A stretch of 64,000 bases of DNA from positions 3,589,039-3,653,038 of the forward strand of contig OZ240229.1 in assembly GCA_965197805.1 (NCBI GenBank), written 5' to 3'. Source of the DNA: Dehalococcoidia bacterium. GTDB lineage: Bacteria; Chloroflexota; Dehalococcoidia; Lucifugimonadales; JAAXIE01. Within the stretch, counting starts at the first letter, position 1. Each line of letters starts with the position of its first letter. The position numbers and the translations under genes are program-made. This document shows, in pieces, positions 15,230-63,540 of this stretch. The notes under the pieces are model-generated. The model was given only the letters and a program-made list of their open reading frames with translations. It was not told the DNA's origin and did no database searches.

Positions 15230-16468
15230 CTACGAGGAGGCCGCTATCTCGCCGATGGCTGCCGTGGCCTGGGCCACCTCCTCCTCGGTGTTGAAGAAGG
15301 AGAAGGACAGGCGCACCGCAGGCGGGTAGCTTACCTGACGACAGACGATACCGTGTTCGTCCCACATCCGGTCGACGACCCCCGGCGGTTCTGCCCCTTC
15401 AACGGTGAAGGTGACCAGCCCGGAGCGTCCGGGGCCTTCCGAAGGTGAAGTGACCTGTACTCCTGGGATGTCGCCCAGTTGTCGCTTGGAAGCGTCGGAT
15501 AGGCTGAGAATCCGCTCTTCTATTTCCACCGTACCTGCGTCTAGGTTGAACTGCACCGCATCCACGAATCCAGCCCACAGAGGATGACTGGGATTGGTGG
15601 TCGGGAACTTCTCGATGGAGTCCAACTCCGCCTCGTAGTTCCCCAAGTGGTCGTGGAATGATGTGGACCGGCTGGAGACCCGTACAGGCCTGAGTTGCGG
15701 CACCAGATCACGGCGGACGAACAGCCCGCCTGTTCCCGACGGCCCCAGAAGCCACTTCTGGCCGGAGAAAGAGTAGAAATCCGGGTCCAGTTGCCGCATG
15801 TCCAAGGCGATGTGTCCCGCCCCTTGTGCCGAGTCCACCAACATCAGGATGCCGCGATCTTTGGTCAACTTACGTATGCCTTCCGCAGGCATCCGCAGAC
15901 CGGTGGAATATTGTATGTGGGAGAAGAAGACCATGCGCGTCTTGGGCGTTATCGCTGCTTCAATCTGGCGCAGTATGGAATCGTGCTCCTCGGCGGGGGC
16001 GAACTGTAGCACTTTCACCTGGACGCCGAACCGGTGGTTCAGCATCAGCGACGGCACCATCACTGACATGTGTTCCAGTGAACAGACGATGATCTCATCG
16101 CCCTCATTCCAGTCCAACCCGTTGAGGACGATGTTCAGCCCCTCGGTGGTGCTGGAAGTCAGGACGATCTCGTCAGGAGTGGCGTTGATGAGCCTAGCTG
16201 CCTGCTCCTTGGCTTTCACCATGTGCAGGCGGCCTGCGGCGAATACCTCGCGAGTGGTCGGACCGTCGAAGCTCTCGTACTCCATGCATTCCATGACGGC
16301 CTCTACGACGCCTCTGGGCGATGGCCCTTGCCAGCCGGTGTTCAGGTAGGTCAGCCTTTGGCACACCGGTATCTGGGCGCGTATCGCTTCTACGTCCACG
16401 AGAGTCACCTCCTCCAAGTGCCACCCGGCATTGCCGGGGTTTGGGAACGCTCCACAAGCTGGCGCCAT
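15230..16468 (-). CDS. Aminotransferase class V-fold PLP enzyme (cysteine desulfurase / selenocysteine lyase-like)
   Basis: FYSFSGQKWLLGPSGTGGLFV PLP-lysine region and overall class V collinearity. The exact start is uncertain. Confidence 0.8.
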   Translation of the reverse strand: MAPACGAFPNPGNAGWHLEEVTLVDVEAIRAQIPVCQRLTYLNTGWQGPSPRGVVEAVMECMEYESFDGPTTREVFAAGRLHMVKAKEQAARLINATPDEIVLTSSTTEGLNIVLNGLDWNEGDEIIVCSLEHMSVMVPSLMLNHRFGVQVKVLQFAPAEEHDSILRQIEAAITPKTRMVFFSHIQYSTGLRMPAEGIRKLTKDRGILMLVDSAQGAGHIALDMRQLDPDFYSFSGQKWLLGPSGTGGLFVRRDLVPQLRPVRVSSRSTSFHDHLGNYEAELDSIEKFPTTNPSHPLWAGFVDAVQFNLDAGTVEIEERILSLSDASKRQLGDIPGVQVTSPSEGPGRSGLVTFTVEGAEPPGVVDRMWDEHGIVCRQVSYPPAVRLSFSFFNTEEEVAQATAAIGEIAASS

Positions 16469-16577
16469 GATATCACAGGCTCTTGTGCTCCTACCGCGCC
16501 GCGTTGACGGTCTAGTTTGGGCTAGCTACAATCCCTATGCATTATTGAGACGCAATTCGTCATTTATGGGAGGCGTC

Positions 16578-17345
16578 ATGGCCTACGAGACCGTCTTGGT
16601 GGAACGTGATCAGGGAGTGGGCATCATAACCCTGAATCGGCCAGAGGTGCTCAACGCCATGAATTACCAGTTGGTGGGCGACCTCAACGGGGCCATCACC
16701 GAACTGGAAGACGACGATAGCATTGGGGCCATTGTCGTTACCGGCTCAGGCGAGAAGGCTTTCACTGCCGGGGGCGACATCCACGAGCAGCGCTCCGACC
16801 AGCACCGGCCCCCGGAAGAGATGGCCGAACGCAGCGAGATACGGGCCGGATGGTCTTGGCACCTGGCATCCTGCCGCAAGCCCACCATCGGGGCCATGAA
16901 CGGCTTGGCCTACGGTGGAGGCGGAGTGCTGGCAACCTCCCTCGACATGCGCGTTGGCTGCGAGCGCACTGTCTTCCGTTTCCTAGCCGCCGCCTACGGG
17001 CGCCTCAACACCACTTGGACTCTACCCATGATCGTCGGCTGGCCCATCGCGAAAGAGTTGCTAATGACAGGCCGTCATGTGCAGCCTGATGAGGCCTACC
17101 GGCTGGGTCTGCTGAACCATCTCGTACCCGCCGATCAAGTGATGGACAAGGCCATGGAGATTGGCGTTGCCATCGCTGGTCACCGCCCGGAGTCCATTCA
17201 AGGCATCAAGATGATGCTGACCGAGGACATCGGCTCCACTTGGCGGGACATGTGGCACCGCGAGAAGGAATACCTCCGCCAGATGGAGTCTTGGACCATC
17301 GAGCAGTCCTTCACCGATTTCCTCGCCCGCCGCGGCCGCGATTAG
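16578..17345 (+). CDS. Enoyl-CoA hydratase/isomerase (crotonase) family protein
   Basis: ITLNRPEVLNAMN...VVTGSGEKAFTAGGDI...GLAYGGG crotonase motifs. ATG 16578 is preceded by GGAGG. Confidence 0.9.
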   Translation: MAYETVLVERDQGVGIITLNRPEVLNAMNYQLVGDLNGAITELEDDDSIGAIVVTGSGEKAFTAGGDIHEQRSDQHRPPEEMAERSEIRAGWSWHLASCRKPTIGAMNGLAYGGGGVLATSLDMRVGCERTVFRFLAAAYGRLNTTWTLPMIVGWPIAKELLMTGRHVQPDEAYRLGLLNHLVPADQVMDKAMEIGVAIAGHRPESIQGIKMMLTEDIGSTWRDMWHREKEYLRQMESWTIEQSFTDFLARRGRD

Positions 17346-17591
17346 GGCTTCTTGCCAGCGGGGCAAGTGACGGTCACATAGGGGGGCCCGGGGAGCCGAA
17401 CTCTCCCATAGGCGGATCATACGGTCTAGGGAAAGGCTGTGGTCTCTCAAGAATCGCGTGAGGCGAAACTCGCGGGTTCCAGCGTGAGATTTTACGACCC
17501 AGCGTGGCCGACCGACAGGTAGCGAAACCCCGGGTTGCCTCGCCCTTCTCCCGGTTCACTGAGGTCCCGCTTGAATCAGCCCGCTTTGCCC

Positions 17592-18542
17592 CTACTCCTT
17601 GGGAAACTGCGGGATCACATCTCGGGCGAACTTCTCCATGGTGGCGACTAGACTGTCGATGGTCTCGCTGTGCAGGTCGGGCAGGCTATAGAAGGTATCC
17701 ATCACCAGATGGTGGACTCCAAGGTCTTGGAAACGCCCCACCGATTCCACGATGCGGGGTGCGGTGTCCACCAGGGGCCACGTTTCGGGCATGCCGTGGG
17801 AGGGCATGGTGGCCTCGATGCGGCTGCCGGGGGTCTCGTCCATCACTTTCATCGGGTGGCGTGCCGCCAGCTTGATGCTGTTGGGATCGCGCCCTACTCT
17901 TTCGGCCAGCTCTCGCAGGCGAGGGATGCTCTCTTCCAGCAACCGAAAACTGGGGCGAGTGGGACCCCATGCGTCACCCAACTCGGCGGCGCGTCGCAGG
18001 GAGCGGCGACTGCCCCCGCCAACCCATATGGGAGGATAGGGATCCTGGTAAGGGGGCGGGTAGGACTGCACGCCTGAGAAGTCGAAGAACTTCCCCTCGA
18101 AGTTCACCGGATCCACCGTCCAAGCATGTCGCAGGGCTTGGATTGCCTCATCGGTGATGGCGCCACGGTCCTCCCATGACGCGTTGAGGCACTCGAACTC
18201 CCGCTTTGCCACTCCAACACCCACGCCGAGGATGAGTCGCCCCTTGGAAAGCTGGTCGACCGTCGCGGCTACCTGAGCGGTATGAAGAGGGTGGCGCAGG
18301 GGCATGATGACGATGCTGGTGCCCAGCTGCACCCGTTTAGTGACGGATGCGACATACCCCAGAACGGTGAACATATCGTAGTAGCCCTTGCCGAACCGCT
18401 CTACCATATCGTCGGGGACCACAACGTGGTCGCTCACCCAGACTGAATGGAAGCCCATGGCCTCGGCCTCTTGCGCAATGCGGATAATGCCGTCGGGGTC
18501 GGCGACATCACGATAGTGGGGCAGCATCACTCCGAACTTCAC
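17592..18542 (-). CDS. LLM-class (luciferase-like) flavin/F420-dependent oxidoreductase
   Basis: MKFGVMLPH...GFHSVWVSDHV...LSKGRLILGVGVG is typical of the LLM family. Confidence 0.85.
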   Translation of the reverse strand: MKFGVMLPHYRDVADPDGIIRIAQEAEAMGFHSVWVSDHVVVPDDMVERFGKGYYDMFTVLGYVASVTKRVQLGTSIVIMPLRHPLHTAQVAATVDQLSKGRLILGVGVGVAKREFECLNASWEDRGAITDEAIQALRHAWTVDPVNFEGKFFDFSGVQSYPPPYQDPYPPIWVGGGSRRSLRRAAELGDAWGPTRPSFRLLEESIPRLRELAERVGRDPNSIKLAARHPMKVMDETPGSRIEATMPSHGMPETWPLVDTAPRIVESVGRFQDLGVHHLVMDTFYSLPDLHSETIDSLVATMEKFARDVIPQFPKE

Positions 18543-26902: not shown

Positions 26903-27019
26903 TGGCGCTAAGGTGTGAGGGAGGGTGAGCCTCTACTACACGCTATTGGGCGGTCCGCGATCCGATTGACACCCTTCCGGCATCGCCATAGAATGGCCCC
27001 GCTTTAACAACTTAATAAG

Positions 27020-27185
27020 CAGTCCCGGGTACCCACAGGGTTTAAGAGGGAAGGCGGTGTGAGACCGCCGCGGTAGCGCCACTGTAATTGGGGAGCGGGC
27101 CGGCAACAATCCACTGTTCCATTAGGGATGGGAAGGGGCCGGGCCCGTAGTGATCCATGAGCCAGGAGACCTGCCCGGGAAAGCG
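27020..27185 (+). promoter_or_regulatory. Cobalamin (B12) riboswitch
   Basis: AAGAGGGAAGGCGGTGTGAGACCGCC...GCCACTGT...B12 box GAGCCAGGAGACCTGCC. The P1 helix pairs CCCGGGT (27024) with CCCGGG (27174). Lies upstream of a BtuF-like operon. Confidence 0.85.
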
Positions 27186-27255
27186 GAGCCCTACTCTGCG
27201 CGTGACGGAGTCGGCTCTCGGAACGCCTGCGGCGGCTTCAGCCAATGCCTTTCCG

Positions 27256-27356: not shown

Positions 27357-28418
27357 ATGCGACTCATCGGACCACTGGTCGGTCTTACCCTGATGGTCAT
27401 CCTGATGGCAGGATGCGGCGGCGCCTCCACCCCTGCCCCCACTGTGGCCGCAACACCCACCGCGCCGACGCCAAGCTCCATCCCTGCTCGTACTGCCGCT
27501 CCCACGGCCACCAGCACTCCCATCACCGCCCGGCCGATGCCCACCAGCACTCCGGCGCCGACACCGACGCCGGGCACGCCCACGCCTGTGCCCCCGACAC
27601 CCGCGCCTACCCCCAGTCTCTTCCCTGTCACCATCATGGATAGCAATGGCGACCAGATTACCTTCGACGCGCCTCCCGAACGCATCATCGCCTTTGACTC
27701 GGCCGCTGTCGAAATCCTCTACGCCTTAGGCGAGGAACACCGCATCGTGGGTACCCATACCTTCGTCGATTACCCACCGGAGACGGCCGACATACCCCGG
27801 GTGGGTGACGCCTTCAACATGGACTTCGAGCAGCTCGTGGCCCAGGAACCAGACTTGGTCTACGTCTTCTTCGACCGTTTTGTGCCCGAGTTGCAAGACC
27901 TTGGCCTCAAGGTGCTCTACGTCGAGTCGCTCAACCACAACCTGGAAGAGGCCATGGAGCACTTCCGCCTCTGGGGCAGCATCATAGGGAACCCTGGTGC
28001 AGCTGACGACGAGATATCCGATATACAGGCGCGCATCCAAGCCATTGAGGACTCCCTAGCCGACGTGGGACAGGGACCCAGGGTCTACCACCACGGGTTC
28101 GACTTCTGGACGCCGGGCGGAGACACCCTGATGGCCCGCATCTATGAGTTGTTGAAGGCCGAGATGGTGACGACGGACATCGAGGGCTACGCCCAGATAT
28201 CCCCTGAAGAGCTGGTGCTCCGCGACCCCGAGGTCATCGTCACCAACGAGTTCAACCAACAACAGGTGCTGGACTCCGACGCCCTAGCCGGAACCACGGC
28301 AGTCCAGCAGGGCGCCGTGGTTCTGACCCAGCGCGGCTCCCTGGACGTAGCGGGGACCAGGCTGGTGGATGCCATCGAGGAGCTGGCCGAGCTTCTCTAC
28401 CCCGAAAGGTTCTCTTAA
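27357..28418 (+). CDS. BtuF/FecB-type periplasmic-binding lipoprotein (cobalamin/siderophore ABC transporter)
   Basis: Lipobox LMAGCGG, a Pro/Thr-rich linker, then a class III SBP fold pattern (IIAFDSAAVEILYALG). Its position behind the B12 riboswitch supports the call. Confidence 0.85.
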   Translation: MRLIGPLVGLTLMVILMAGCGGASTPAPTVAATPTAPTPSSIPARTAAPTATSTPITARPMPTSTPAPTPTPGTPTPVPPTPAPTPSLFPVTIMDSNGDQITFDAPPERIIAFDSAAVEILYALGEEHRIVGTHTFVDYPPETADIPRVGDAFNMDFEQLVAQEPDLVYVFFDRFVPELQDLGLKVLYVESLNHNLEEAMEHFRLWGSIIGNPGAADDEISDIQARIQAIEDSLADVGQGPRVYHHGFDFWTPGGDTLMARIYELLKAEMVTTDIEGYAQISPEELVLRDPEVIVTNEFNQQQVLDSDALAGTTAVQQGAVVLTQRGSLDVAGTRLVDAIEELAELLYPERFS

Positions 28419-28421
28419 GAA

Positions 28422-29519
28422 ATGAATTTGGGCTTTCTTGTAGGAAGGTCGACCGCCAAGAGCGCCTCCCCAGCCATGGCTGTGCCTCTTGGCTTAGCCT
28501 ACCCATGGCTGCGCCTAGCCGCCGGGTTGGTGGTGCTGGTGGTCATTGGAATACTGGCCATAGCCATCGGCTCGGTCTACATCCCGCCTTGGACCGTGGC
28601 GCGAATCCTGCTCGATGCGGCGCCAGTGATGGACATATCGCAGACTTGGCCCGATGCCTGGGGTACCATCGTGTGGCAACTACGCTTTCCCCGCATCATC
28701 CTGGCCGGGATGGTGGGTGCGGCGCTTGCCGTATCCGGGGCCACCTACCAAGGGCTGTTCCGTAACCCCTTGGCCGACCCCTTCTTTCTGGGCGTGGCCG
28801 CCGGGGCCGCCCTCGGGGCCTCTCTGGTGCTCCTCACCAGCGTACCCGTCTATTTCGGAGGCTTCAGCCTGCTGCCCCTGGCGGCCTTCGCCGGGGCCAT
28901 TGCCACTGTTTCCGTCACGTACGGCGTCGTTCGCCGCTCAGGCGGTCTCCCCCTCACCTCCCTGATTCTGGCCGGCGTAGCCATGTCGTCCTTGGTTACC
29001 GCGGTCACCAGTCTTCTCATTATTCGCAGCGACCCGGACGTGAAGCCGCTGCTGGGCTGGCTCATGGGCGGTTTCATCGGCAGCCAATGGGACGACATCT
29101 ACACCATCTTGCCCTATGTCGTGCCCGGCACCCTGGTGATGATGGCCTACTCCCGCATCCTGAACACCTTCCAACTCACGGAGGAAGAAGCGCGCCAGTT
29201 GGGGGTAAACGTCGAGCGGACCAAACTGCTGCTCGTCGCCCTAGCCTCTCTAACCGCCGCGGCTGCTGTATCGGTTTCGGGCATAATCGGGTTCGTCGGG
29301 ATCATCGCCCCCCATGCCGTGAGGATGGTGTGGGGCAACGACCATCGCTTCCTGCTGCCCATGTGCCTGCTGGTGGGAGCCGGTTTCCTCATACTGGCCG
29401 ACCTGACGGCCCGCACCATCGCCAGCCCCAGCGAGTTGCCCGTGGGCATCGTCACCGCCTTCTGTGGAGCGCCTTTCTTCCTGTACTTACTGCGTCGCAG
29501 CAGGAGCTTCAGCTTTTGA
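28422..29519 (+). CDS. FecCD/BtuC-family ABC transporter permease
   Basis: Multi-pass hydrophobic protein with the FecCD signature ...GIIGFVGIIAPH.... Confidence 0.9.
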   Translation: MNLGFLVGRSTAKSASPAMAVPLGLAYPWLRLAAGLVVLVVIGILAIAIGSVYIPPWTVARILLDAAPVMDISQTWPDAWGTIVWQLRFPRIILAGMVGAALAVSGATYQGLFRNPLADPFFLGVAAGAALGASLVLLTSVPVYFGGFSLLPLAAFAGAIATVSVTYGVVRRSGGLPLTSLILAGVAMSSLVTAVTSLLIIRSDPDVKPLLGWLMGGFIGSQWDDIYTILPYVVPGTLVMMAYSRILNTFQLTEEEARQLGVNVERTKLLLVALASLTAAAAVSVSGIIGFVGIIAPHAVRMVWGNDHRFLLPMCLLVGAGFLILADLTARTIASPSELPVGIVTAFCGAPFFLYLLRRSRSFSF

Positions 29520-30352
29520 ACACCGCCCCCACTCTCCAGCTGGAAGACATCTGGTTCTCGTATGGACGCTCTCATGTCCTCAATGGAATCGACCTGCAGG
29601 TCGCTCCCGGTGAGATGGTAGGGCTGGTTGGTCCCAACGGCACGGGCAAGAGCACCCTCCTGAACATCGCCAGCCGTACTTTAAACCCGCAGCGAGGTCG
29701 TGTGCTGCTGGGCGGTGTCGATGTGCAACAGCTTTCCCCCAGAAAACGGGCATCGAAAGTGTCCATGGTTCCCCAGTCGCCAGCCGTCCCCACTGGCTTC
29801 AACTGCATGGAGGTCGTGCTGATGGGGCGCAACCCCCATCTGGGGCTTCTCCAGTGGGAGCGGCCTCGCGACCTGGAGATCGTCCGTCACGCCATGGAGT
29901 TAACCGGCACCGACGAGTTTGCATCCCGGCCCATCTCGTCCCTCTCAGGCGGCGAGAGGCAACGCGTCTTCATCGCCCGGGCCTTGTCCCAAGGAGCGCC
30001 CCTGCTGCTGCTGGACGAGCCCACTGCTCACCTCGACATCGGCTACCAGCCAGCCGTCCTCGACCTCATCCAGAAAGTGCGGACTGAGATGGGCGTTAGC
30101 GTTCTCGCTGCGATGCACGACATCTCCTTGGCTGCCCAGTACTGCCAGCGCATAGCCGTCCTGCACGGAGGCTCCGTCTACGCGCTAGGCACCCCCGAAG
30201 AAGTGGTCACCGCCGACGTGGTCTCCCAAGCCTTCGGGACCGAAGTCGCCATCAGCCGTCACCCGGTCCACGGCACTCCCGTAGTGCTCCCCATCGGCAA
30301 GAACGCCCGCACCATCGACTGCCCTCTGGCCTCAACCAGCGACCTCTGCTAG
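29516..30352 (+). CDS. ABC transporter ATP-binding protein (BtuD/FepC-like)
   Basis: Walker A GPNGTGKST, signature LSGGERQRV, Walker B LLLLDEP. The TTG 29516 start overlaps the permease stop. The N-terminal extension of the ORF track (from 29087) overlaps the permease and is discounted. Confidence 0.9.
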   Translation: MNTAPTLQLEDIWFSYGRSHVLNGIDLQVAPGEMVGLVGPNGTGKSTLLNIASRTLNPQRGRVLLGGVDVQQLSPRKRASKVSMVPQSPAVPTGFNCMEVVLMGRNPHLGLLQWERPRDLEIVRHAMELTGTDEFASRPISSLSGGERQRVFIARALSQGAPLLLLDEPTAHLDIGYQPAVLDLIQKVRTEMGVSVLAAMHDISLAAQYCQRIAVLHGGSVYALGTPEEVVTADVVSQAFGTEVAISRHPVHGTPVVLPIGKNARTIDCPLASTSDLC

Positions 30353-36973: not shown

Positions 36974-38764
36974 ATGAATAGTTTTCGCTATACCAGCATC
37001 TTGTTCCCCATAGGTGTGCTGATCGTGTTCTTGCTCCTAATAGCTGTTGCTTGTGGCGAATCGGCTGAACCGACGTCCACAGCCACGCCAGAACCCGTAG
37101 CAACGACGGCTTTCGACCCACCCCCAACGGCGGCCACCCCCACGTCATCTCCCGCCCCGGTGCCCACTTCGGCTCCTCCGACAACGTCTACGGTAAGCCG
37201 GCTGATAGTAGCCAACATACCTCCCCAGCCTGAAGCTCTGGATCCGTCATTGATCGGAACCTTCGAGCAGTTCCAGTTCTTGCCCATGATGGACAATCTA
37301 TTGGGTTTCAACCACAAGACTGGAGTTGTCGAAGGACGGGCTGCTAAGAGCTGGACGGGTAGCCCCGACGGTAAGACATGGACTTTCGAGCTCAACGAAG
37401 ACGTCCCTTTCCACTTTGGAAAAGGAACGATGACTTCCGCGGACTGGAAGGCTACTTTTGACTTCTTAATTCGGGACGAAAGCCTGGTTTCGAGGAAAAG
37501 GTTCTACAAGCTAAAGTTCGGTTTGTCCCCAGATTCGCCGGGTCCAGTCCCGGACGGGATAATCGACACTTCAGACCCGAATGTCTTGGTATTCAATCTG
37601 GCCGAGACCGATGCACGATTCTTCTACGACATGACCGACTATTTCGAAGCGGTCGCTTTAAGCAAAACTCAACTGGCAGAGCCCTACGACGAGTGGACGA
37701 AGACGCCGGCGGGCATAGGCTCTTTCCAGCTACTGGAGGCCAACGTCGGCGAAAACCGCATTTTCGAGAATGCTCCGGGGACCCACTATTTCCAAGAGCC
37801 GGCCTTTGAAGAACTCCAAATCATCTTCGTTCTCGAACCTTCAACTAGGCTTGCCATGCTCCTAGGAGAGCAGGCCCACATTGCCGACCTGCCTCGAGAG
37901 CTGGCTGAGGAGGGGGAAGAGCAGGGGTTGAAGCAGTGGCTGACCACCTTGGCGCCCTCAGTGGTGTTTGGAGTGTTTGGTGGCAACTTCGCGGGCCCGC
38001 CGCTGGAAAATGGTGACCCAGACTACTCCTTCCCGTTGTACAACTCCGAGCTGCCGTGGACCAAGAAGGAAGTGCGGCAAGCCATGAACATGGCGATCAA
38101 CCGGGATGAGCTTATTGAGGAACTCTTCGCAGACTCAGCCATCCCCATAATTGGCCCGCCCATGTGGTGGCCGAGGAACAATGGTTGGAACCCCCAATGG
38201 GTGGAAGACTTCCCAGATCTGTATCGGTATGATCCCGTAGCCGCCAAGGAACTGCTTGCTGAAGCTGGCTACCCCGATGGATTCACCGCCGAGTGGAAGG
38301 CATTTGCTCGACCCGGTGTACCTTGGAGGGAGCTTGTTGAGGCCCATGTCGGTTACATGAGGGAAATAGGAATCAACCTGAACGTTGAGGAGATGGAGTT
38401 TCAGGAGTTCCGCAACCAGTACCGGCAATTCAATCATAGTGGCTGGGGCTTCTGGTGGACTGCTCAGGAGAACCTGCCGTCCACCCGGTTCGGGTTCCAC
38501 CACAATATGCGCCGTAATCAGCAGCAGTGGTACGTGACGGAAGCGCTCCAGAGAAACTTCGACAAACTCGAGACCACTGTGCCAAAAGACGAACGCCATG
38601 CCATATTGAAAGAAATGGGCGATGAACTGTTCTATGATTTCGCTCTGATGCCCTTGGCCGCTGTTAGACCGAGATATGTAGCCAACACCAGCGTTGTGGC
38701 CGAATTCTTGACGACGGGCCTTAACGGAGTCCGTGACTTGGAGTTTGTGGTCCCGGCGCGGTAG
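36974..38764 (+). CDS. ABC transporter substrate-binding lipoprotein, family 5 (peptide/nickel, DppA/OppA-like)
   Basis: Signal peptide with lipobox IAVACGE, a Pro/Thr-rich linker, and SBP_bac_5-like collinearity. It is the first gene of a five-gene ABC operon. Confidence 0.9.
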   Translation: MNSFRYTSILFPIGVLIVFLLLIAVACGESAEPTSTATPEPVATTAFDPPPTAATPTSSPAPVPTSAPPTTSTVSRLIVANIPPQPEALDPSLIGTFEQFQFLPMMDNLLGFNHKTGVVEGRAAKSWTGSPDGKTWTFELNEDVPFHFGKGTMTSADWKATFDFLIRDESLVSRKRFYKLKFGLSPDSPGPVPDGIIDTSDPNVLVFNLAETDARFFYDMTDYFEAVALSKTQLAEPYDEWTKTPAGIGSFQLLEANVGENRIFENAPGTHYFQEPAFEELQIIFVLEPSTRLAMLLGEQAHIADLPRELAEEGEEQGLKQWLTTLAPSVVFGVFGGNFAGPPLENGDPDYSFPLYNSELPWTKKEVRQAMNMAINRDELIEELFADSAIPIIGPPMWWPRNNGWNPQWVEDFPDLYRYDPVAAKELLAEAGYPDGFTAEWKAFARPGVPWRELVEAHVGYMREIGINLNVEEMEFQEFRNQYRQFNHSGWGFWWTAQENLPSTRFGFHHNMRRNQQQWYVTEALQRNFDKLETTVPKDERHAILKEMGDELFYDFALMPLAAVRPRYVANTSVVAEFLTTGLNGVRDLEFVVPAR

Positions 38765-38936
38765 CCTAGGGAAGTTCGTTTTGTTGTACCGATAGTGAAT
38801 GCACAAAGGCAGGTAGGGCAACTCCTCTACCTGCCTTTGTCTAGGGGCAAGAGGGAGCCTCTGGCACCCGACCTGTCAGACTAGCCAAGGCTGGCTCGGC
38901 TCCGGGGAGAGTTCAGGTTAATACAAGGGGCACCCC

Positions 38937-39875
38937 GTGCAGCGATACATCCTGATTCGCCTCGCCCAGTCTGTCCTAACGCTGTTGATAATCAGCATAG
39001 TCGTCTTTGGCTTGGCACGATTGTCAGGAGACCCGATCAACGTCCTGACCTCAGACGACATGTCGGAGCAGGATCTTCAGCAGGTCAAGGAGAACTGGGG
39101 ACTGGATAAGTCCTACCCCGAGCAATACTGGCTCTTCCTCGCCAACGCAGTACAAGGGGATTTTGGTAAGTCTCTGAGATTCAAAGGGCATACCGCCATA
39201 TCTCTGATCAAACGCCGTCTGCCCGCTACCCTCGAGCTTACGGCGGTCGCTCTCGGCTTCGGCGTCCTCTTGGCCATACCCATCGGAGTACTGTCTGCGG
39301 TGAAGAAGGACACGCCTTTCGATTACGGCGCAAAGATTTTTGGCCTGTTGGGGCAATCTGTCCCCAGCTTCTGGCTGGGCATAGTGCTGATATGGGTATT
39401 CGGGGTGACCCTGGGTTGGCTGCCTGTGAGCCTGCGGGATGAGGGCAACATCTTCCAGCGCTTGGATCATATCGTGTTGCCTGCCTTCACGCTGGGCTAC
39501 TTCTCAGTCGCCGCGTTAATGCGCCTGACCCGCTCCGCTATGCTGGAAGTGCTGGACAGCGAGTATGTGAAAACGGCGCACCTCAAGGGCCTACCCCAAT
39601 GGAAGGTGCTTTGGAAGCATTGCCTCCGCAATGCAGCCATCGGCCCATTAACATACCTTGGAATACTGACGGGCATCGTGCTCACTGGGGCTGTAGCTAT
39701 CGAGACGGTTTTTGCTTGGCCGGGCTTGGGGCTATTGATCGTGCAATCGGTGCAAGCAAGGGATTTCCCAGTAGTGCAAGCGCTGGCGCTTTGGGGTGCT
39801 CTCGGGGTAATTGCGATAAACCTGATGGTAGATATCTCCTATGCCTATCTCGATCCTAGAATACGTTATAGATAG
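38937..39875 (+). CDS. ABC transporter permease (DppB/OppB-like)
   Basis: MQRYILIRLAQSVLTLLIISIVVF N-terminus and a BPD_transp_1 pattern. Confidence 0.9.
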   Translation: MQRYILIRLAQSVLTLLIISIVVFGLARLSGDPINVLTSDDMSEQDLQQVKENWGLDKSYPEQYWLFLANAVQGDFGKSLRFKGHTAISLIKRRLPATLELTAVALGFGVLLAIPIGVLSAVKKDTPFDYGAKIFGLLGQSVPSFWLGIVLIWVFGVTLGWLPVSLRDEGNIFQRLDHIVLPAFTLGYFSVAALMRLTRSAMLEVLDSEYVKTAHLKGLPQWKVLWKHCLRNAAIGPLTYLGILTGIVLTGAVAIETVFAWPGLGLLIVQSVQARDFPVVQALALWGALGVIAINLMVDISYAYLDPRIRYR

Positions 39876-39908
39876 TCGTACTGAAGAACGCCGGAAGGGA
39901 ATGTCCTG

Positions 39909-40826
39909 ATGGCTATAACAATCTTACAAGAGCAGCCGTGGTACAGTGCCGAAAGGCTCTGGCGTGCGTTAGCAGTGGTCCGGCGATGGCCTCTGATCCC
40001 CTTGCTATTGATCTTGGTACTGGTGGTAATGCCGGCAGTCCTTGCTGATGTTCTTGCTCCCCATGATCCTGAAATTGGAAAGCTGAGCGAACGACTTACT
40101 CCTCCCTTCTGGGCAGGAGATCAGGAGGTGGCAGAAGAGGGGGAGGGCATCAGATACCTTCTGGGCACTGATCGTTCTGGAAGAGACATCTTCAGTCGGA
40201 TGATGCACGGGGCTAGAGTATCACTGATGGTTTCTCTACTGGCCATATCCGCCGGGGGCATCGTTGGTACCACACTGGGCGTGCTGGCCGGTTACTACGG
40301 CGGAATAACGGACCATTTCATAATGCGCATAGTAGACGCCTTTCTCGCTTTCCCTTTCATACTACTGGCGTTGGTGCTGGTCTCGATATTTGGCAGTAGT
40401 TTCTCCACCGTGGTAGTTACGATAGGGATTTTGCTGTGGGCCCGGTTTGCCCGACTGGCTCGGGGCGAGGCGCTTACCGTAAAGCCTAGGGACTTTGTTA
40501 CCCGGGCCAAAGCCTCTGGGTGCTCCGACTTCCGCATAATGACACGACACATCTTTCCCAACATTGTGAACCCGATCCTGGTGGTCGCGACCCTTGAGGT
40601 GGGGCATGTGATATTGTTGGAATCCACACTTAGTTTCCTCGGAGCAGGCCTACCGATCCCCACTCCGGCTTGGGGCCTGATGGTGGCGGAGGGTCGAGAC
40701 CTAATTGTGGCTAACTGGTGGGTCTCTTTCTTTCCCGGCATTGCCATCCTGCTCACGGTGTTATCGATGAATTTGGCGGGAGACTGGCTAAGAGATAGGC
40801 TGGACCCGAAGCTGAGACAGTTGTGA
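39909..40826 (+). CDS. ABC transporter permease (DppC/OppC-like)
   Basis: LGTDRSGRDIFSRMMHGARVSL is the conserved DppC motif. Confidence 0.9.
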   Translation: MAITILQEQPWYSAERLWRALAVVRRWPLIPLLLILVLVVMPAVLADVLAPHDPEIGKLSERLTPPFWAGDQEVAEEGEGIRYLLGTDRSGRDIFSRMMHGARVSLMVSLLAISAGGIVGTTLGVLAGYYGGITDHFIMRIVDAFLAFPFILLALVLVSIFGSSFSTVVVTIGILLWARFARLARGEALTVKPRDFVTRAKASGCSDFRIMTRHIFPNIVNPILVVATLEVGHVILLESTLSFLGAGLPIPTPAWGLMVAEGRDLIVANWWVSFFPGIAILLTVLSMNLAGDWLRDRLDPKLRQL

Positions 40827-41815
40827 GCATGGACGATTTCGATCGCGATCGCCCCATACTTGAGGTTGACAACCTCTGCACGTATTTTTTCAACCGACGT
40901 GGTGTGGTTAAAGCTGTCGACGGAGTCAAGTTTCACTTGAGGCAGGGTGAAACTCTGGGTATCGTGGGCGAATCCGGCTGTGGCAAGACCATGACAGCCC
41001 TATCGCTGTTGCGCCTTGTACCCCGGCCGGCAGCACGCATCGTGGACGGGGCGGTGCGGCTATATGGAGAGGACCTGCTATCCCTTAGCAACGACGAGAT
41101 GCGGAGGGTTCGAGGGCGCAAGATTGCGATGATCCTCCAAGACCCCCAAACGTCGCTCAACCCGGTGTTTAATATCAGTAACCAGCTAATAGAAGCCTTC
41201 GGGATGCGGTTCAAGGGTGATAAGCAGTCCATGATCCAGCGGGCCATTGAGGCCTTGCGAAATGTAAGGGTGGCGGCGCCTGAAAGTCGCTTGAGAGATT
41301 TCCCTCACCAGATGAGCGGCGGGATGAAACAGCGGGTATTTGGCGCCATGGCAGTAGCCCAAGAGCCGGGGGTGGTAATAGCCGATGAACCTACCACCGC
41401 GCTGGACGTGACCATTCAACTGCAGTACCTCCGTCTGTTGAAGGAGATTCAGGCGCAAACAGGGCTCGCCATCATATTCATCACCCACGACTTCGGGATT
41501 GTGGCGCGCATGTGCGACCGGGTAGCTGTGATGTATGCCGGCCGCATTGTGGAGAATGGGCCTGTCAGAGATGTATTTAACCACCCGTCGCATCCTTACA
41601 CACAGGCTTTGATGGCATCGGTGCCCGACATGGAGGAGCCCCCGGAACGCCTCTACTCTATCGAGGGCCAGCCACCTGTACTGATGGATCTTCCCGATGG
41701 CTGCCGCTTTGCTCCACGATGCCCTCACGCAACGGACCGATGTAACGCCGAGTACCCCCCTAGCTTCACAGTCAGGCCAGAACACACAGCAGATTGCTGG
41801 AAAATGGAAGAATAG
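40823..41815 (+). CDS. ABC transporter ATP-binding protein (DppD/OppD-like)
   Basis: Walker A GESGCGKT, signature MSGGMKQRV, Walker B VIADEPTT, and the C-terminal oligopeptide domain CRFAPRCP. Confidence 0.9.
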   Translation: MSMDDFDRDRPILEVDNLCTYFFNRRGVVKAVDGVKFHLRQGETLGIVGESGCGKTMTALSLLRLVPRPAARIVDGAVRLYGEDLLSLSNDEMRRVRGRKIAMILQDPQTSLNPVFNISNQLIEAFGMRFKGDKQSMIQRAIEALRNVRVAAPESRLRDFPHQMSGGMKQRVFGAMAVAQEPGVVIADEPTTALDVTIQLQYLRLLKEIQAQTGLAIIFITHDFGIVARMCDRVAVMYAGRIVENGPVRDVFNHPSHPYTQALMASVPDMEEPPERLYSIEGQPPVLMDLPDGCRFAPRCPHATDRCNAEYPPSFTVRPEHTADCWKMEE

Positions 41816-42783
41816 TGGAACATGCCCTGATCGAAGTCAAAAATCTGAAGAAATACTTCCCAGTCACCCGGGGCTTGATCCTCATGAAAACCGTCGGCTA
41901 TGTTCAGGCCGTTGATGGGATCAGCTTCACAATAGGTGATAAAGAAACGTTGGCGTTGGTTGGTGAGTCCGGCTGTGGCAAAACCACTACTGCCAAGTTG
42001 ATGCTTCGTCTCGAACAACCCACTTCAGGACAGATTTATCTCCAAGGTCAGGACATTCAGGAGTTGACCGGGCAGGAACTGAAGGACCTCCGTTCCGATG
42101 TTCAACCCGTGTTTCAGGACCCGTGGTCTTCACTGAGCCCGCGAATGAAAGTAAAAGATATTGTAGCGGAGCCTCTGGTTGTAAACCGGCAGATGACTCG
42201 CCAAGAAGTAAAGGACCGAGTAGATGAGGTGCTGGTACAAGTGGGCCTCAACCCAGCACAGGGGGAGCTCTATCCACACGAGTTCAGCGGCGGCCAGCGG
42301 CAACGAATTGCAGTGGCCAGTGCGCTTGCATCGTATCCCAAGCTAATGATTCTCGACGAGCCCGTGTCAGCGCTGGACGTTTCGATACGAGCCCAGGTGA
42401 TGAATCTGCTCAAGGACCTTCAGGGACAATACGAGGTCAGCTATATGCTGGTGGCCCACAATCTGGCTACGGTAAGGTACATGGCCCATAGGACAGCCGT
42501 AATGTACCTAGGTCAGTTTGTAGAATATTCTTCCACCACAGATCTCTTTGAAAACCCTCTGCACCCATATACCAAGGCGCTGTTTTCGGCAGCGCTTCCT
42601 TCCCATCCCGATGTTAATCGGGAAGAAATCGTCCTATCTGGTGAGGTCCCTTCTCCCATCAATCCGCCGTCAGGCTGCCGGTTTCATCCACGATGTCCAA
42701 TGGCGATGGAAAGATGTAGTGTGGACATTCCCGAACCCAAAGAGGTGGCGACAGGCCACACCGTTAGCTGCCACCTATATTAG
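41794..42783 (+). CDS. ABC transporter ATP-binding protein (DppF/OppF-like)
   Basis: GESGCGKTT, FSGGQRQRI, LILDEPVSALD, and CRFHPRCP. Confidence 0.9.
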   Translation: MLENGRIVEHALIEVKNLKKYFPVTRGLILMKTVGYVQAVDGISFTIGDKETLALVGESGCGKTTTAKLMLRLEQPTSGQIYLQGQDIQELTGQELKDLRSDVQPVFQDPWSSLSPRMKVKDIVAEPLVVNRQMTRQEVKDRVDEVLVQVGLNPAQGELYPHEFSGGQRQRIAVASALASYPKLMILDEPVSALDVSIRAQVMNLLKDLQGQYEVSYMLVAHNLATVRYMAHRTAVMYLGQFVEYSSTTDLFENPLHPYTKALFSAALPSHPDVNREEIVLSGEVPSPINPPSGCRFHPRCPMAMERCSVDIPEPKEVATGHTVSCHLY

Positions 42784-42846
42784 AGGCCTTTTGTTCCAGA
42801 TATGTCCTTGGAAGTTATCAAGTATCACGGCAAAGGAGGCAACAGT

Positions 42847-43446
42847 ATGCTATGGCTAAGGGGTGTTAGCGACGACCAAGCCGAAGGCTATGTCAAAGAA
42901 GTGTTCGACCGGTACCGGGAAACGCGGGGTGCAGTGCCTGCATTGTCTCGTGTGCTCGCACTTAGACCCGATGTGCTACGAGGACGGGAAACTCTACGTA
43001 ATGCGGTATGCGATGAAGCGACCACTCTGGGAAGGCGCCGCGAGGAGCTTCTGAATTTCTATGGAGCGACGCTAGGCGTCTGTACCGGTTGAGTGATGAA
43101 TCACGGAGAGTTGCTCCGTAAGGCTTCGGATACAGACAAGAAAGCAGTTGCAGCAATTGGTGCCGACTTCAGGACGTCCGAATTAGATCACCAGGACAAG
43201 ACCATGCTGGCTTTCGCTGAGAAACTTACCTTTGACCACACTCATGTGACCAAGCAAGACTTAGAAGGTCTGCGAGAGGTTGGCTTCAGCGACGAGAATA
43301 TCCTGGAAATCATAGCCTCTGTAGCCTTCAGGAATTTCAGTAACCGGCTGAATGTCGGCTTGGGCTTAGATGACCCTGACAACCTGCCGGAGTTAGACCC
43401 AGATCTGAACGAGATGTTGGTGACGAGGGAAGCTGTAAGCGCCTAA
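42847..43446 (+). CDS. AhpD/carboxymuconolactone decarboxylase (CMD)-family peroxidase-related protein with in-frame TGA at 43090-43092 (candidate selenocysteine, motif C-T-G-U)
   Basis: ORFs 42802..43092 and 43093..43446 are in the same frame, separated only by TGA. Together they give about 199 aa, the normal length for this family. The TGA sits at the second position of the CxxC redox motif (GVCTG[TGA]VMNH). AAGGAGG lies 7 nt before ATG 42847. Confidence 0.7.
43103..43119 (+). promoter_or_regulatory. SECIS-like hairpin downstream of the TGA
   Basis: ACGGAG-AGTTG-CTCCGT starts after a 10-nt gap from the TGA (first stem base 11 nt downstream of its last base). Confidence 0.45.
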
Positions 43447-56942: not shown

Positions 56943-57659
56943 TTACCCGCCGGCCGCCACCTGCTTCGCCCCCTCCGCCTGCTGCACAACACCCCAGATG
57001 TCTTGAGGCAACTCCGCGCCGCGCTCTTCACCCAACACCCCCGCCCGGTCCCGCGCTTCGGCAGCGTCGATTGCTGCAAAGTCCGACACCAGCAAGCCGA
57101 GGCCGTCCACCATGCGGACGCGGTAGTTGAAATAGGCCGATATGTGAGCGATATCCAAAATGTCCCGGTCCGTCCAGCCCACATCCCGCAGCTTCTGGAC
57201 ATCATCCTGAGTCATGGCCGATGGCGTGAGGGTCAGCTTTTCGGCCCATTCCAGCATGGCCCGTTCCCCCTCGGTGAGGTCGGCCTTCCTCCAGTCGTTC
57301 TGAATATACTCGGCGGTGAGATCGTCGCCGCCAACCCTACGCAGGGCCCCTGCGTGGGACACCGCTCAATAGCGGCAGTTGGCAGTCAGTGAGGTGACCG
57401 TAGCGATCATCTCCCGCTGTGCAGGGGTCAAGCCAGATGGCCCGCGCATGATGTCCATCATGAACTCGCGGGCGTGGAGCATCGCCTGTGGCTGTAGGCT
57501 GGAAAGCTCGGGAGGTGTCACGGGACGCTCCATCCCCGGCGCTGCCTCCCCGTAGGTCTCGCCCATGCGCTCATTGAGTTCCGCCATCTTGTCGTAGGCG
57601 GCCTTCAACTCGCCCTCGGCCCCGCTCTCCCTGATTACATGAATCCACGGCATAGCCAC
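56943..57659 (-). CDS. AhpD/CMD-family protein, second paralog with in-frame TGA (57368-57366) at the redox motif (C-R-Y-U); candidate selenoprotein
   Basis: ORFs 57659..57366 and 57362..56943 are in the same frame. The junction reads TSLTANCRY[TGA]AVSHAGAL, so the TGA takes the second Cys position of CxxC...H. The C-terminal half (MLEWAEKLTL...DVGWTDRDILDIAHISAYFNY) is the normal continuation of CMD proteins. Confidence 0.7.
57335..57358 (-). promoter_or_regulatory. SECIS-like hairpin downstream of the TGA
   Basis: The minus-strand RNA CCCACGCAGG-GGC-CCUGCGU(A)GGG forms a 10-bp stem with a bulged A and a G-rich loop. It starts 8 nt after the TGA. Confidence 0.45.
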
Positions 57660-57682
57660 CCCCTTCTCCGAGTCTGAGTCGC

Positions 57683-58231
57683 CTAAGCCTTCAGCCTGCG
57701 GGCCGTATCCAGCACCGTAGCCATTGCTTGGTCAAGAAGCTCTCCCAACGAGGCGTCGATGATCGCGCCGTCGGGACTGATGGCTTGGTCCACATGGGGC
57801 AGCAGGACTCGTGGCGTCGTTACAACCCATCCGCCCTCCGACTCGATGCTGGAGACAAGGTGCTCTGCCATTCGTATCGATCCCGATCGCCCTGGTGTGC
57901 ACCCCATCACGTAGAACACCTGCCCCGGCATCACGTTGGGCGCACGACAGGCCCACTCCACCACGTTCTTCATCACCGCAGGAATGGTGCTGTTGTACTC
58001 CGGTGCCGTCAGCACCACGGCATCTGCTCCGGCTATGGCATCGCGCAACTCCCTGACCGAGGCCGGAAACTCGCCTCCCACTTCCAAGGCCGGGCTGTAC
58101 AGGGGCACCGGAGTAAGGTCGAACTCCTCCGCCTCCACGCCCTGCTTTCTCACGGCATCCATGGCCAGCTTCAGCAGCTTAAGGTTCCACGAGCCCTGAC
58201 GCAGGCTCCCGGCAATTCCTACTACTCCCAA
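57683..58231 (-). CDS. NADPH-dependent FMN reductase family protein
   Basis: GIAGSLRQGSWNLKLL...VVLTAPEYNSTIPAVMKNVVEW is the FMN_red pattern. It lies upstream of, and co-oriented with, the CMD paralog. Confidence 0.85.
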   Translation of the reverse strand: MGVVGIAGSLRQGSWNLKLLKLAMDAVRKQGVEAEEFDLTPVPLYSPALEVGGEFPASVRELRDAIAGADAVVLTAPEYNSTIPAVMKNVVEWACRAPNVMPGQVFYVMGCTPGRSGSIRMAEHLVSSIESEGGWVVTTPRVLLPHVDQAISPDGAIIDASLGELLDQAMATVLDTARRLKA

Positions 58232-62060: not shown

Positions 62061-63540
62061 ATGCGAACAGGGGCAGAGTACAAAGAGAGTTTGCGCGATG
62101 GGCGCGACGTATGGGTGATGGGCGAAGGCCCGGTGGCAGACGTCACCACAGACCCGGCGACCTCGGCCATGGTGAATGAGTACGCTGCATGGTATGACCG
62201 CCACTTCGACCCCGTCGGCCCCGTCGGCCCCGTCGGCCCCGTCCGCCCTGTCGGCCCTGTCGGATGCACCCGGCCAGCGGCAGCCTGTTGCCTTCACGCC
62301 GCCTGAGACGTCTGCGGATTTGAGGCGCTTGGGGAAGGCAATCAGTGCAGTCCATTCCCTGGCCGGGGGAAACATGACTCACACCCCAGGCTACGGGGCC
62401 TTGATTGCCTTGGGGTTCCTGAATGTTCTCAAGCGGCTGAACCACTCCTCCGAGGAGATTGAGGCGGCTGAGGCGTATCTGGAATCTCTGGCTGGCAGCG
62501 GCAGGTTTCTCACCTTCGCCGGAGCTGGGACACTGATTGGGACACGGCTCCGCGAAACTGAGAGTGAGCGGGCGGCGCTCCGTGTGGTTAGCGAGACCGC
62601 TGAGGGCATCGTGCTGAGTGGCAAGCTCCAGATGCACACCAGTACGCCCTTCGCCGAGGACGTGCTCATCACCTGCAGGGATGAGTTGCCACCGGGCAGC
62701 GGCAGGTTCCTGTGGTTCATCGTGCCGGTGAACTCCCCCGGCATGCGGGTGGTGGCCCGCCGGCTCGCCGCCAAGCACGACAATCCCTTTCTAGCGCCCT
62801 TGAGCAGCCGGTTTGATGAGCTGGACGCCATGCTCTGGCTGGAGGACGTTTTCGTCCCTCGCTCTCGGATTTTTGCCGCCGAACCTCTGCTGCGGAACCT
62901 GTCTGGGCGCCATTCGCTGGTATCCTGGCTTCTCTGGCATCACAGCTACGGCTGGCTCGCCAAGGCCGAATTGACCCTCGGCCTCGCCCTTGCCTTGGCT
63001 GAAGTCATGGGGTTAAAGGGCAATCCCCAGACAATCGAGCAGTTGGTCGAGCTGACCGTCAGCGTCCAGACCACTCGCACCTGCATGACAGCAGCGGAAC
63101 TGGACCCGGAGACGACGGTGGGCGGGCATGCCCTGCCTAACCAGCTCCACTTGGCCGCTGCAGGGATCAACACCCTCAGAGTGCGCCAGCGGATGACTGA
63201 AATCCTGCGTGGCCTTCCCGGTTCGTCCTTGGTCAACGCCCCTGCCGACACCGACTTCGCAGACCCGAGGATGGCTGCCGAACTGGAAGATGCCTTTGGC
63301 GGGGGCGGCTACACTGCCATGCAAAGAGCGGCCCTCTTACAGCTCACCTGGGACCAAGTTTCGTCGGGGTTGGACGGACGAGAATCAGCCTTCGAGCTCC
63401 ATGCCAGCGGCGGGCTGGAAGTATGGCGACGCCGCTTATGGGTCTGGTTCGAACGCTGCAACGAACTCGCCAACGGCGTCCAGCACCTCCTCGAGATAGC
63501 CAGACCGCCCATCGACCTGACCAACCTCCAGAAATTCTAG
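62061..63540 (+). pseudogene. HpaB-family (4-hydroxyphenylacetate 3-monooxygenase / 4-hydroxybutyryl-CoA dehydratase-like) gene, reading frame broken at a 9-bp microsatellite
   Basis: The N-terminus MRTGAEYKESLRDGRDVWVMGEGPVADVTTDPATSAMVNEYAAWYDRHFDP (frame of 62061) is the canonical HpaB start. The rest of the family-like sequence (..QPVAFTPPETSADLRRLGKAI.. to the end) is in the frame of 62176. The switch lies within or next to 62221-62274. Confidence 0.7.
62221..62274. repeat. 9-bp microsatellite, six units (CCCGTCGGC x3, CCCGTCCGC, CCTGTCGGC, CCTGTCGGA)
   Basis: Counted directly in the sequence. It encodes (PVG)n in one frame or (SAP)n in another. Confidence 0.95.

Follow-up and report, generated by a model that had tools for sequence, protein, structure and literature searches.

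A probable AhpD-like selenoprotein gene with an in-frame TGA and a compact SECIS hairpin in a Dehalococcoidia genome

Two open reading frames (ORFs) on the minus strand of a 64,000-nt stretch of a Dehalococcoidia genome (contig OZ240229.1 of assembly GCA_965197805.1, nt 3,589,039–3,653,038; the whole stretch is called the window below) raise the question of whether the TGA codon between them ends one gene or is read within it as selenocysteine (Sec). The two halves, 57659..57366 and 57362..56943, are entered separately in the ORF list of the window, and public gene calls break the locus into ORFs of 95 and 139 amino acids (aa). Both lie in one frame, as stated in an original prediction made from the letters of the DNA. 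Translated as a whole, 57659..56943 gives 239 codons with a sole internal stop (...TVTSLTANCRY*AVSHAGALRRVGG...), and the junction reads ...TANCRY*AVSHAGAL..., i.e., the C-x-x-U followed by x3-H that had been described there. The sequence evidence presented here makes it very likely that both ORFs are one gene for an AhpD-like selenoprotein (CMD superfamily, TIGR01926), with its UGA decoded as Sec by the mechanism proposed further on. The gene is real, very probably rightly read as a selenoprotein gene, and ordinary in kind.

Structure of the gene

The gene as read here consists of the following features:

56943..57653, minus strand: AhpD-like (TIGR01926) putative selenoprotein gene, 236 codons from ATG 57653, with a TAA stop at 56945..56943
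57366..57368, minus strand: in-frame TGA, taken to encode the selenocysteine (U98) of C95-R-Y-U98-A-V-S-H102
57659..57669, minus strand: purine-rich ribosome-binding stretch GGAGAAGGGGG, 5–15 nt 5′ of ATG 57653, within the 29-nt gap that follows an FMN reductase gene

An alternative start at GTG 57659 would give 238 codons, and the residue numbers used for the protein (E83, C95, U98 and so on) count from this GTG. The likely start is ATG 57653, since relatives begin with MPW or MAW, the public gene call uses the same ATG, and GGAGAAGGGGG precedes it. The span first proposed for the gene, 57659..56943, is thus correct in its frame, while its start is more likely to be the ATG. The predicted tryptic peptides across the TGA are ...EMIATVTSLTANCR/YUAVSHAGALR.

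The ORF of the C-terminal half is present on the NCBI contig and on ENA contigs, identical except for the called start residue. When the window was scanned for in-frame TGA junctions, 85 candidates were obtained; a redox motif, homology and a hairpin in the register described below came together in only two of them, both AhpD-like genes.

Protein family, active site and fold

The joined protein (U read as C) scores 138.1 bits on the NCBIfam model TIGR01926, 'peroxidase-related enzyme' (cut-off 81.8), and also matches Pfam CMD. Its sequence matches in the PDB are 6K40 (E = 1.2e-25), 3C1L, 2OYO, 2PFX and 2PRR, with E values ranging from 1e-25 to 1e-19. U98 (in 'NCRYcAVSH') lies opposite the second Cys of 'RCVYCAVSH' in 6K40. 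The full proton-relay signature of AhpD, E-x11-C-x-Y-[U]-x3-H, is present (E83/C95/Y97/U98/H102), and in an alignment with 11 homologs (A1) neither C95 nor H102 varies, and E83 hardly does.

The corresponding relay residues are Glu118/Cys130/His132/Cys133/His137 in AhpD of M. tuberculosis and Glu36/Cys48/Tyr50/Cys51/His55 in PA0269 (PMC3141380). In the M. tuberculosis protein, Cys133 is exposed and cross-links to AhpC, and Cys130 is partly buried (PMC6626918). The window protein has in common with AhpD and PA0269-type proteins the all-helical CMD/AhpD fold and the E-x11-C-x-[H/Y]-C-x3-H relay, but carries Sec where AhpD has its exposed reactive Cys133. For M. tuberculosis AhpD, the AhpC reductase, the reductant is lipoamide/DlaT/Lpd. 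The sequence similarity of the window protein to true AhpD is remote, and the nearest solved structures are the five named above, which are functionally uncharacterised 'peroxidase-related' proteins.

The fold was tested by proxy, through an AlphaFold model of P0015, the closest homolog with Cys, which is 50% identical to the window protein. The model is all-helical, has a predicted local distance difference test (pLDDT) value of 90.4, and gives target-normalised template modelling (TM) scores of 0.82–0.89 to 6K40, 3C1L, 2PRR, 2OYO and 2PFX. An extra helix at residues 179–198 corresponds to a C-terminal extension specific to the clade. When this model was used in Foldseek, the next best hit after the AhpD-like structures was Bmp8 (6OHI/6OHJ), annotated in the PDB as a debrominase, with a target-normalised TM score of 0.79 and 18% identity. 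The likeness is at the fold level only, and is of note since the hosts are Dehalococcoidia.

Membership of two other NCBIfam families was rejected, i.e., NF041238 (AhpD_rel_CFYUT; 47.4 bits against a cut-off of 175) and NF053654 (YciW-related (seleno)protein; 17 bits against 310). These families and NF041537 (arsenite methyltransferase/AhpD-domain selenoprotein) have a CxxU in an AhpD-type domain in common with the window protein, which, unlike NF041537, carries no methyltransferase fusion.

The TGA codon among homologs

If the TGA is decoded as Sec, the matter can be examined at the same codon column in related genes. This column was read in every homologous gene of 79 genomic loci fetched from species-representative genomes; the window's own genome lies outside the scanned representatives, and the nearest one there is the Dehalococcoidia metagenome-assembled genome (MAG) OZ253586.1. 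In the 101 homologous genes, the codon is TGA in 90, TGC in nine and TGT in two. Three further matches, weak and partial, are CMD-like genes without the motif and have other codons in the column. The MAGs in which the codon is TGA carry the labels Dehalococcoidia/Chloroflexota, Binatia, Deltaproteobacteria/Syntrophobacter (Desulfobacterota), Acidobacteria, Calditrichaeota, KSB1, Cloacimonadota, Gemmatimonadota, Planctomycetota and Cytophagia (Bacteroidota), about ten phyla in all.

At the level of protein, the U98 column of alignment A1 is Cys in nine of the 11 homologs, so that the TGA occupies the position of the second Cys of the CxxC motif, in agreement with the original prediction. One of the two exceptions is P0005 (L081, 160–831), where the JGI product shows Trp at the Sec position and the DNA codon is TGA; this selenoprotein is hidden because the public translation used a code with TGA as a sense codon.

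Searches for homologs returned mostly fragments of 130–145 aa that start just after, or end at, the TGA position, and gene callers therefore break relatives down to about 55% identity at that place. Full-length CxxC proteins at this position are few (P0015, P0035 and more distant ones). The sequence 3′ of the TGA is 65–89% identical in dozens of relatives, and 38 reconstructed full-length Sec members are 50–85% identical on either side of the codon.

A compact candidate SECIS hairpin in a fixed register

Immediately downstream of the TGA is a candidate selenocysteine insertion sequence (SECIS):

57339..57355, minus strand: core of the candidate SECIS, ACGCAGG-GGC-CCUGCGU, whose stem has 7 bp and whose loop has 3 nt; 10 nt 3′ of the TGA
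57335..57358, minus strand: extended hairpin CCCACGCAGG-GGC-CCUGCGU(A)GGG, 10 bp with a bulged A, −15.0 kcal/mol, beginning at the 8th nt after the TGA

The 10-bp stem with a bulged A that had been described at 57358..57335 was reproduced, with a GGC loop and the same −15.0 kcal/mol. Its three outer pairs are specific to the window gene and are not kept in relatives.

The 54 nt from each TGA were folded, and the register was counted from the U of the UGA. A stem at nt 13–19/23–29 around a 3-nt loop was found in almost all TGA-bearing genes. In an ungapped alignment of 87 distinct TGA-bearing sequences (A2), the seven stem pairs are formed in 92.8% of cells, compared to 29–55% when the 3′ arm is slid by 1–3 nt. 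Three of the seven pairs show compensatory changes (CG 40 vs GC 38; AU 47, GC 20 and CG 8; CG 72 and UA 3), and the covariation score of this coding element among related sequences is 0.358 versus 0.181 in shuffles, with none of 500 shuffles reaching it. The first loop nucleotide (A2 column 30) is G in at least 90% of the 87 sequences. Among the 90 Sec genes, all seven register pairs are present in 60 and six in another 20, while ten distant Cys genes have between one and five. Because the hairpin is coding, synonymous codons were also resampled with the codon usage of the window, and full register pairing arose in 1.5% of the recodings of the window peptide.

The consensus for bacterial SECIS (bSECIS) elements specifies a loop of 3–9 nt, a stem of 4–16 bp, a G at loop position 1 or 2, a UGA-to-loop distance of 16–37 nt and a minimum free energy of −7.5 kcal/mol or lower (PMC13188914). 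The window hairpin fits throughout, with its GGC loop, stem of 7 to 10 bp, UGA-to-loop distance of 17 nt and energy as given above. Rfam showed no family matching at the hairpin site.

The minimal element of E. coli fdhF is a 17-nt upper stem-loop positioned 11 nt after the UGA, and the window hairpin is likewise 17 nt long, starting 10 nt after the UGA. Both it and the fdhF-type bSECIS are stem-loops within the ORF just 3′ of the UGA, and in both the upper stem is stable and the apical loop is small and starts with G. Hairpins of the window type differ in having a triloop (GGC, GUU, GGG and similar) and no conserved bulged U in the upper stem. The constraint that a SECIS places on the encoded peptide is illustrated here by H-[AG]-[EG]-x-L-R. 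A 17-nt element so compact and fixed in register across some ten phyla is a handy signature for finding further members.

A second TGA-bearing gene in the window

The other AhpD-like gene with these properties lies on the opposite strand:

42847..43446, plus strand: first paralog, a TIGR01926 putative selenoprotein gene with TGA at 43090..43092 (...GVCTG*VMNH..., C-T-G-U-x3-H)
43103..43119, plus strand: paralog SECIS hairpin ACGGAG-AGUUG-CUCCGU, in the same register (nt 13–29)

This paralog scores 111 bits on TIGR01926 (cut-off 81.8), is 29% identical to the window gene and is 14.3 kb away from it. The original prediction of two paralogs about 14 kb apart, with TGA in matching columns and a hairpin each, is borne out by these data. 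The hairpins share a common register, with seven of seven pairs in the one and six of seven in the other. That of the paralog has 6 bp, a UGA-to-loop distance of 16 nt and an energy of −8.3 kcal/mol, and fits the bSECIS consensus; at least six of the seven register pairs arose in 2.4% of synonymous recodings of the paralog.

Five genes of an Opp/Dpp-type ABC transporter operon (SBP_bac_5, two permeases and two oligo_HPY ATPases) precede the paralog in the same orientation, with a gap of 63 nt (36974–43446 including the paralog). Each of the two paralogs in the window therefore ends a different co-oriented gene or operon.

Selenocysteine machinery

Two putative Sec genes in 64 kb make it very probable that Sec is decoded in this genome, in line with recent reports that rank Dehalococcoidia among the most selenoprotein-rich bacteria; BSepDB contains Dehalococcoidia MAGs with 46 and 49 of them (PMC13326102). 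SelB homologs named 'selenocysteine-specific elongation factor' are plentiful in Dehalococcoidia data, as seen in the best 120 of 8000 matches. A relative carrying the same AhpD-like TGA gene (L028; Dehalococcoidia MAG OZ240228.1) has selB (TIGR00475, 305 bits vs a cut-off of 242) and selD (TIGR00476, 337 bits vs 125) as convergent genes at 15380–18291, 5–8 kb from the AhpD-like gene. This locus was matched by an E. coli SelD sequence used as a tblastn probe, and the match was independently upheld by NCBIfam; an approximate E. coli SelA probe gave no match. Where its active-site residue is encoded, the selD gene of L028 is of the Sec type, reading TGA in frame (...LATCAG*AGKAG...), so that SelD would itself be a selenoprotein there. 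No tRNA-Sec was detected by ARAGORN in the window or in loci L001–L080.

Proposed mechanism

During translation, the UGA at 57368..57366 would be decoded as Sec. Judging from its anatomy and from relatives, the hairpin would recruit SelB-GTP-Sec-tRNA(Sec) while the UGA is in the A site. The product is predicted to be an all-helical protein of the AhpD fold, with Sec at the position of M. tuberculosis Cys133, where it would attack the partner. C95 would be the counterpart of the resolving Cys130, and E83, Y97 and H102 the counterparts of the proton relay. Selenol/thiol redox cycling via a Se–S bond is the likeliest chemistry. The substrate would be a peroxide, or else a disulfide partner or a peroxiredoxin in its oxidised form, and some donor would afterwards return the enzyme to its reduced state. 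In the lineage of the window, the FMN reductase encoded upstream may supply the electrons, although this is speculative.

Weighing of the alternatives

A CMD/AhpD gene with Sec at the second position of CxxC and its own downstream hairpin, as originally proposed, is well supported by the alignment of the column, the occurrence of TGA across phyla, the fit to the bSECIS consensus and the covariation. Several observations weigh against it. As the earlier reader had remarked, the window has no sel genes: domain scans found no SelA, SelB or SelD in any scanned ORF of the window, and there is no selC, the sole tRNA gene of the window being a tRNA-Arg. None of the best 120 of 8000 SelB homologs came from the contig that carries the window gene. 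Unlike in the two-gene AhpC/AhpD system of mycobacteria, neither ahpC nor a peroxiredoxin (AhpC-TSA) domain turned up among the ORFs scanned, whether next to the gene or elsewhere in the window. Since the hairpin is coding, part of its conservation reflects the conserved peptide. In addition, the hairpin persists in the two closest Cys homologs, which have TGC in the column (P0015, L082 23–706, 7/7 pairs; P0035, L083 4507–5127, 6/7 pairs), so the hairpin alone does not distinguish Sec from Cys forms in this clade. In these two genes it looks like a fossil SECIS left after a recent change from Sec to Cys.

Public gene callers split the gene into two ORFs, which is also how it would appear if a chance nonsense mutation, or a sequencing error in a long-read MAG, had interrupted a CxxC gene, so that the 95-aa fragment alone or no functional product were made. 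That such data contain assembly errors is shown by a frameshift in the HpaB-like gene of the ENA copy of this region (L001). The TGA, however, is found in 90 of the 101 homologous genes, in independent assemblies and phyla and in the ENA copy as well. The downstream sequence remains in frame and conserved, and the second paralog of the window has TGA in the matching column. A pseudogene or assembly error is effectively refuted by this, and the earlier argument against a chance nonsense mutation gains from the column count and from the rarity of stem pairing in synonymous recodings (1.5%, and 2.4% for the paralog).

A full-length protein lacking selenium would be produced if TGA encoded a standard amino acid, whether by reassignment of the code (Trp or Gly, codes 4 and 25) or by near-cognate readthrough that needs no SECIS. 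The W in the JGI translation of P0005 and the lack of visible sel genes in the window are in its favour. However, TGA is the terminator of eight of the 32 Pfam-supported genes of the window (TAG of 16 and TAA of eight), so TGA is not reassigned genome-wide. The redox-active column is Cys in every homolog without TGA, the hairpin is of the bSECIS type, conserved and covarying, and selB and selD are present in a relative with the same gene (L028), within a class rich in selenoproteins. This explanation is considered very unlikely.

Highly improbable, too, is a truly split gene, in which a 95-aa chain and a 139-aa chain re-initiated at GTG 57362 would form a heterodimeric AhpD-like domain. A GTG does occur 3 nt after the TGA in the window gene, and is used by gene callers, but the restart codon is not kept: relatives read TGA-ACC-GTC-GCC-CAC, and their called starts scatter (MAHAG..., MGGDD...). 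Such an arrangement would also part C95 and H102 of a single active-site helix, and the Cys forms are always single chains.

Within the selenoprotein reading, which is thus preferred, a narrower proposal is that the sub-clade of the window gene might be a distinct selenol-based reductase for organohalide or metalloid substrates, rather than a generic peroxidase adaptor, recharged here by a co-transcribed NAD(P)H:FMN reductase. The clade has the extra C-terminal helix, is almost obligately Sec-containing, and reaches 3–5 tandem copies in some marine Dehalococcoidia. This idea draws on the fold likeness to the thiol-dependent debrominase Bmp8, and on the arsenite methyltransferase and RDH-like neighbours in sister clades, and it is unlikely.

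Relation to known selenoproteins

Zhang, Gladyshev and co-workers described the 'AhpD-like protein' with CxxU in 2005 as a selenoprotein family new at the time, from 27 Sargasso Sea sequences placed in COG2128 (PMC1088965). In the Global Ocean Sampling (GOS) study of 2008, 'AhpD-like 1' (COG2128, CxxU) ranked fourth among the families in abundance, counting 299 Sec and 902 Cys sequences (PMC2398784), and a 2026 review tabulates 'AhpD-like protein, TIGR01926, CxxU' (PMC13188914). The window gene belongs to this family, since it scores above the TIGR01926 cut-off, carries the motif, forms a Sec/Cys pair with its homologs and has a hairpin of the bSECIS consensus form. It shares with the family the same model, CxxU at the second Cys, a SECIS within the coding sequence just downstream, and widespread Cys homologs. 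The habitat is also alike (marine and environmental uncultured bacteria), and there is no essential difference. The main value of the finding is in annotation, the family itself being known since 2005: a redox-active selenoprotein has been missed because public calls split this locus, and dozens of relatives, into two unnamed ORFs.

The sub-clade to which the window gene belongs was found in Dehalococcoidia, Binatia and Desulfobacterota. Its marks are an insert near the N-terminus and an extension at the C-terminus, conserved and about 45 aa long (...ERGV-x-[LM]P-x-D-x-WGV...), and it is almost wholly Sec in the sample, with the 38 reconstructed Sec members set against two Cys forms. Dehalococcoidia/Chloroflexota MAGs contain tandem arrays of TGA-bearing AhpD-like genes: five in 5.2 kb in L008 (8604–13785), three each in L006 and L005, and two in L004. 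The contig of L008 has one further copy elsewhere (L013), and every array copy has the TGA in the CxxU column and the hairpin in register. The extension, the insert, the near-total use of Sec and the arrays were not found in the descriptions of the family that were consulted. What is modestly new is an almost wholly Sec sub-clade with a C-terminal extension, its tandem arrays, and a very compact SECIS of fixed register across phyla.

A variant C-terminus was seen in the nearest relative, L002 (10319–10759), and in the metagenomic copies P0037, P0045 and P0046, where the extension after ...VSDFAA is swapped for an unrelated tail of about 50 aa (...HSIVVILYHVIRTGQGFMDMGQHYFEQRNRPAIARQLMHRLERLGLKIAVQAS). 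In L002, no ORF of at least 100 aa (transposase-sized) lies between the end of the AhpD-like gene and the next downstream gene.

Gene neighbourhood

The gene preceding the AhpD-like gene is the following:

57683..58231, minus strand: NAD(P)H-dependent FMN reductase family gene, 182 aa, upstream and co-oriented; Pfam FMN_red, E = 1.1e-30

An NADPH-dependent FMN reductase had been predicted at 58231..57683, and the Pfam match confirms it, although the protein scores below the cut-off of every NCBIfam equivalog (ArsH, SsuE, MsuE). It ends 29 nt 5′ of ATG 57653, and a scan for promoters and terminators revealed no such site between the two genes. The short gap and the lack of a terminator-like site make it likely that they form one transcript, so that the FMN reductase and AhpD-like genes are probably co-transcribed. 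The downstream neighbour of the AhpD-like gene is an unannotated ORF of 92 aa.

The original prediction had also seen the pair as a dedicated redox couple. Synteny does not sustain this: of the close loci, only L001 (another assembly of this region) and L002, the nearest relative, have a homolog of the reductase adjoining the AhpD-like gene, and the remaining 30 lack it. When neighbouring genes were clustered, no partner proved common to the whole family. The FMN reductase was accordingly rejected as a conserved partner, and the case for a couple comes down to adjacency; a redox couple within the lineage of the window is a reasonable hypothesis and nothing more. Several other apparent conserved neighbours were discarded as artefacts of high G+C, being ORFs that run antisense to the AhpD-like genes or overlap them.

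In one Dehalococcoidia sub-clade (L010–L015 and L025, at about 11.5–13.2 kb in each), genes for a Rieske-type ferredoxin and an arsenite methyltransferase come after the AhpD-like TGA gene in the same orientation. The methyltransferase gene is 2 kb downstream, and its product scores 272.9 bits on NF008823 (cut-off 263). Together with the fused NF041537 model, these neighbours hint at a recurrent link of AhpD domains with metalloid methylation. The neighbour in another sub-clade is an RDH-like protein that scores below its cut-off.

Elsewhere in the window, a cobalamin riboswitch (RF00174, 117.5 bits) occurs at 27010–27192 on the plus strand, directly 5′ of a Peripla_BP_2/FecCD/ABC_tran operon (27357–30352) that presumably encodes a B12 uptake system. 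An HpaB-like monooxygenase gene at 62176–63540 (plus strand) is an intact ORF of 454 aa in the window and is present as two out-of-frame ORFs in L001 (4038–5302); as the window copy is intact, the split in L001 represents an assembly frameshift rather than recoding.

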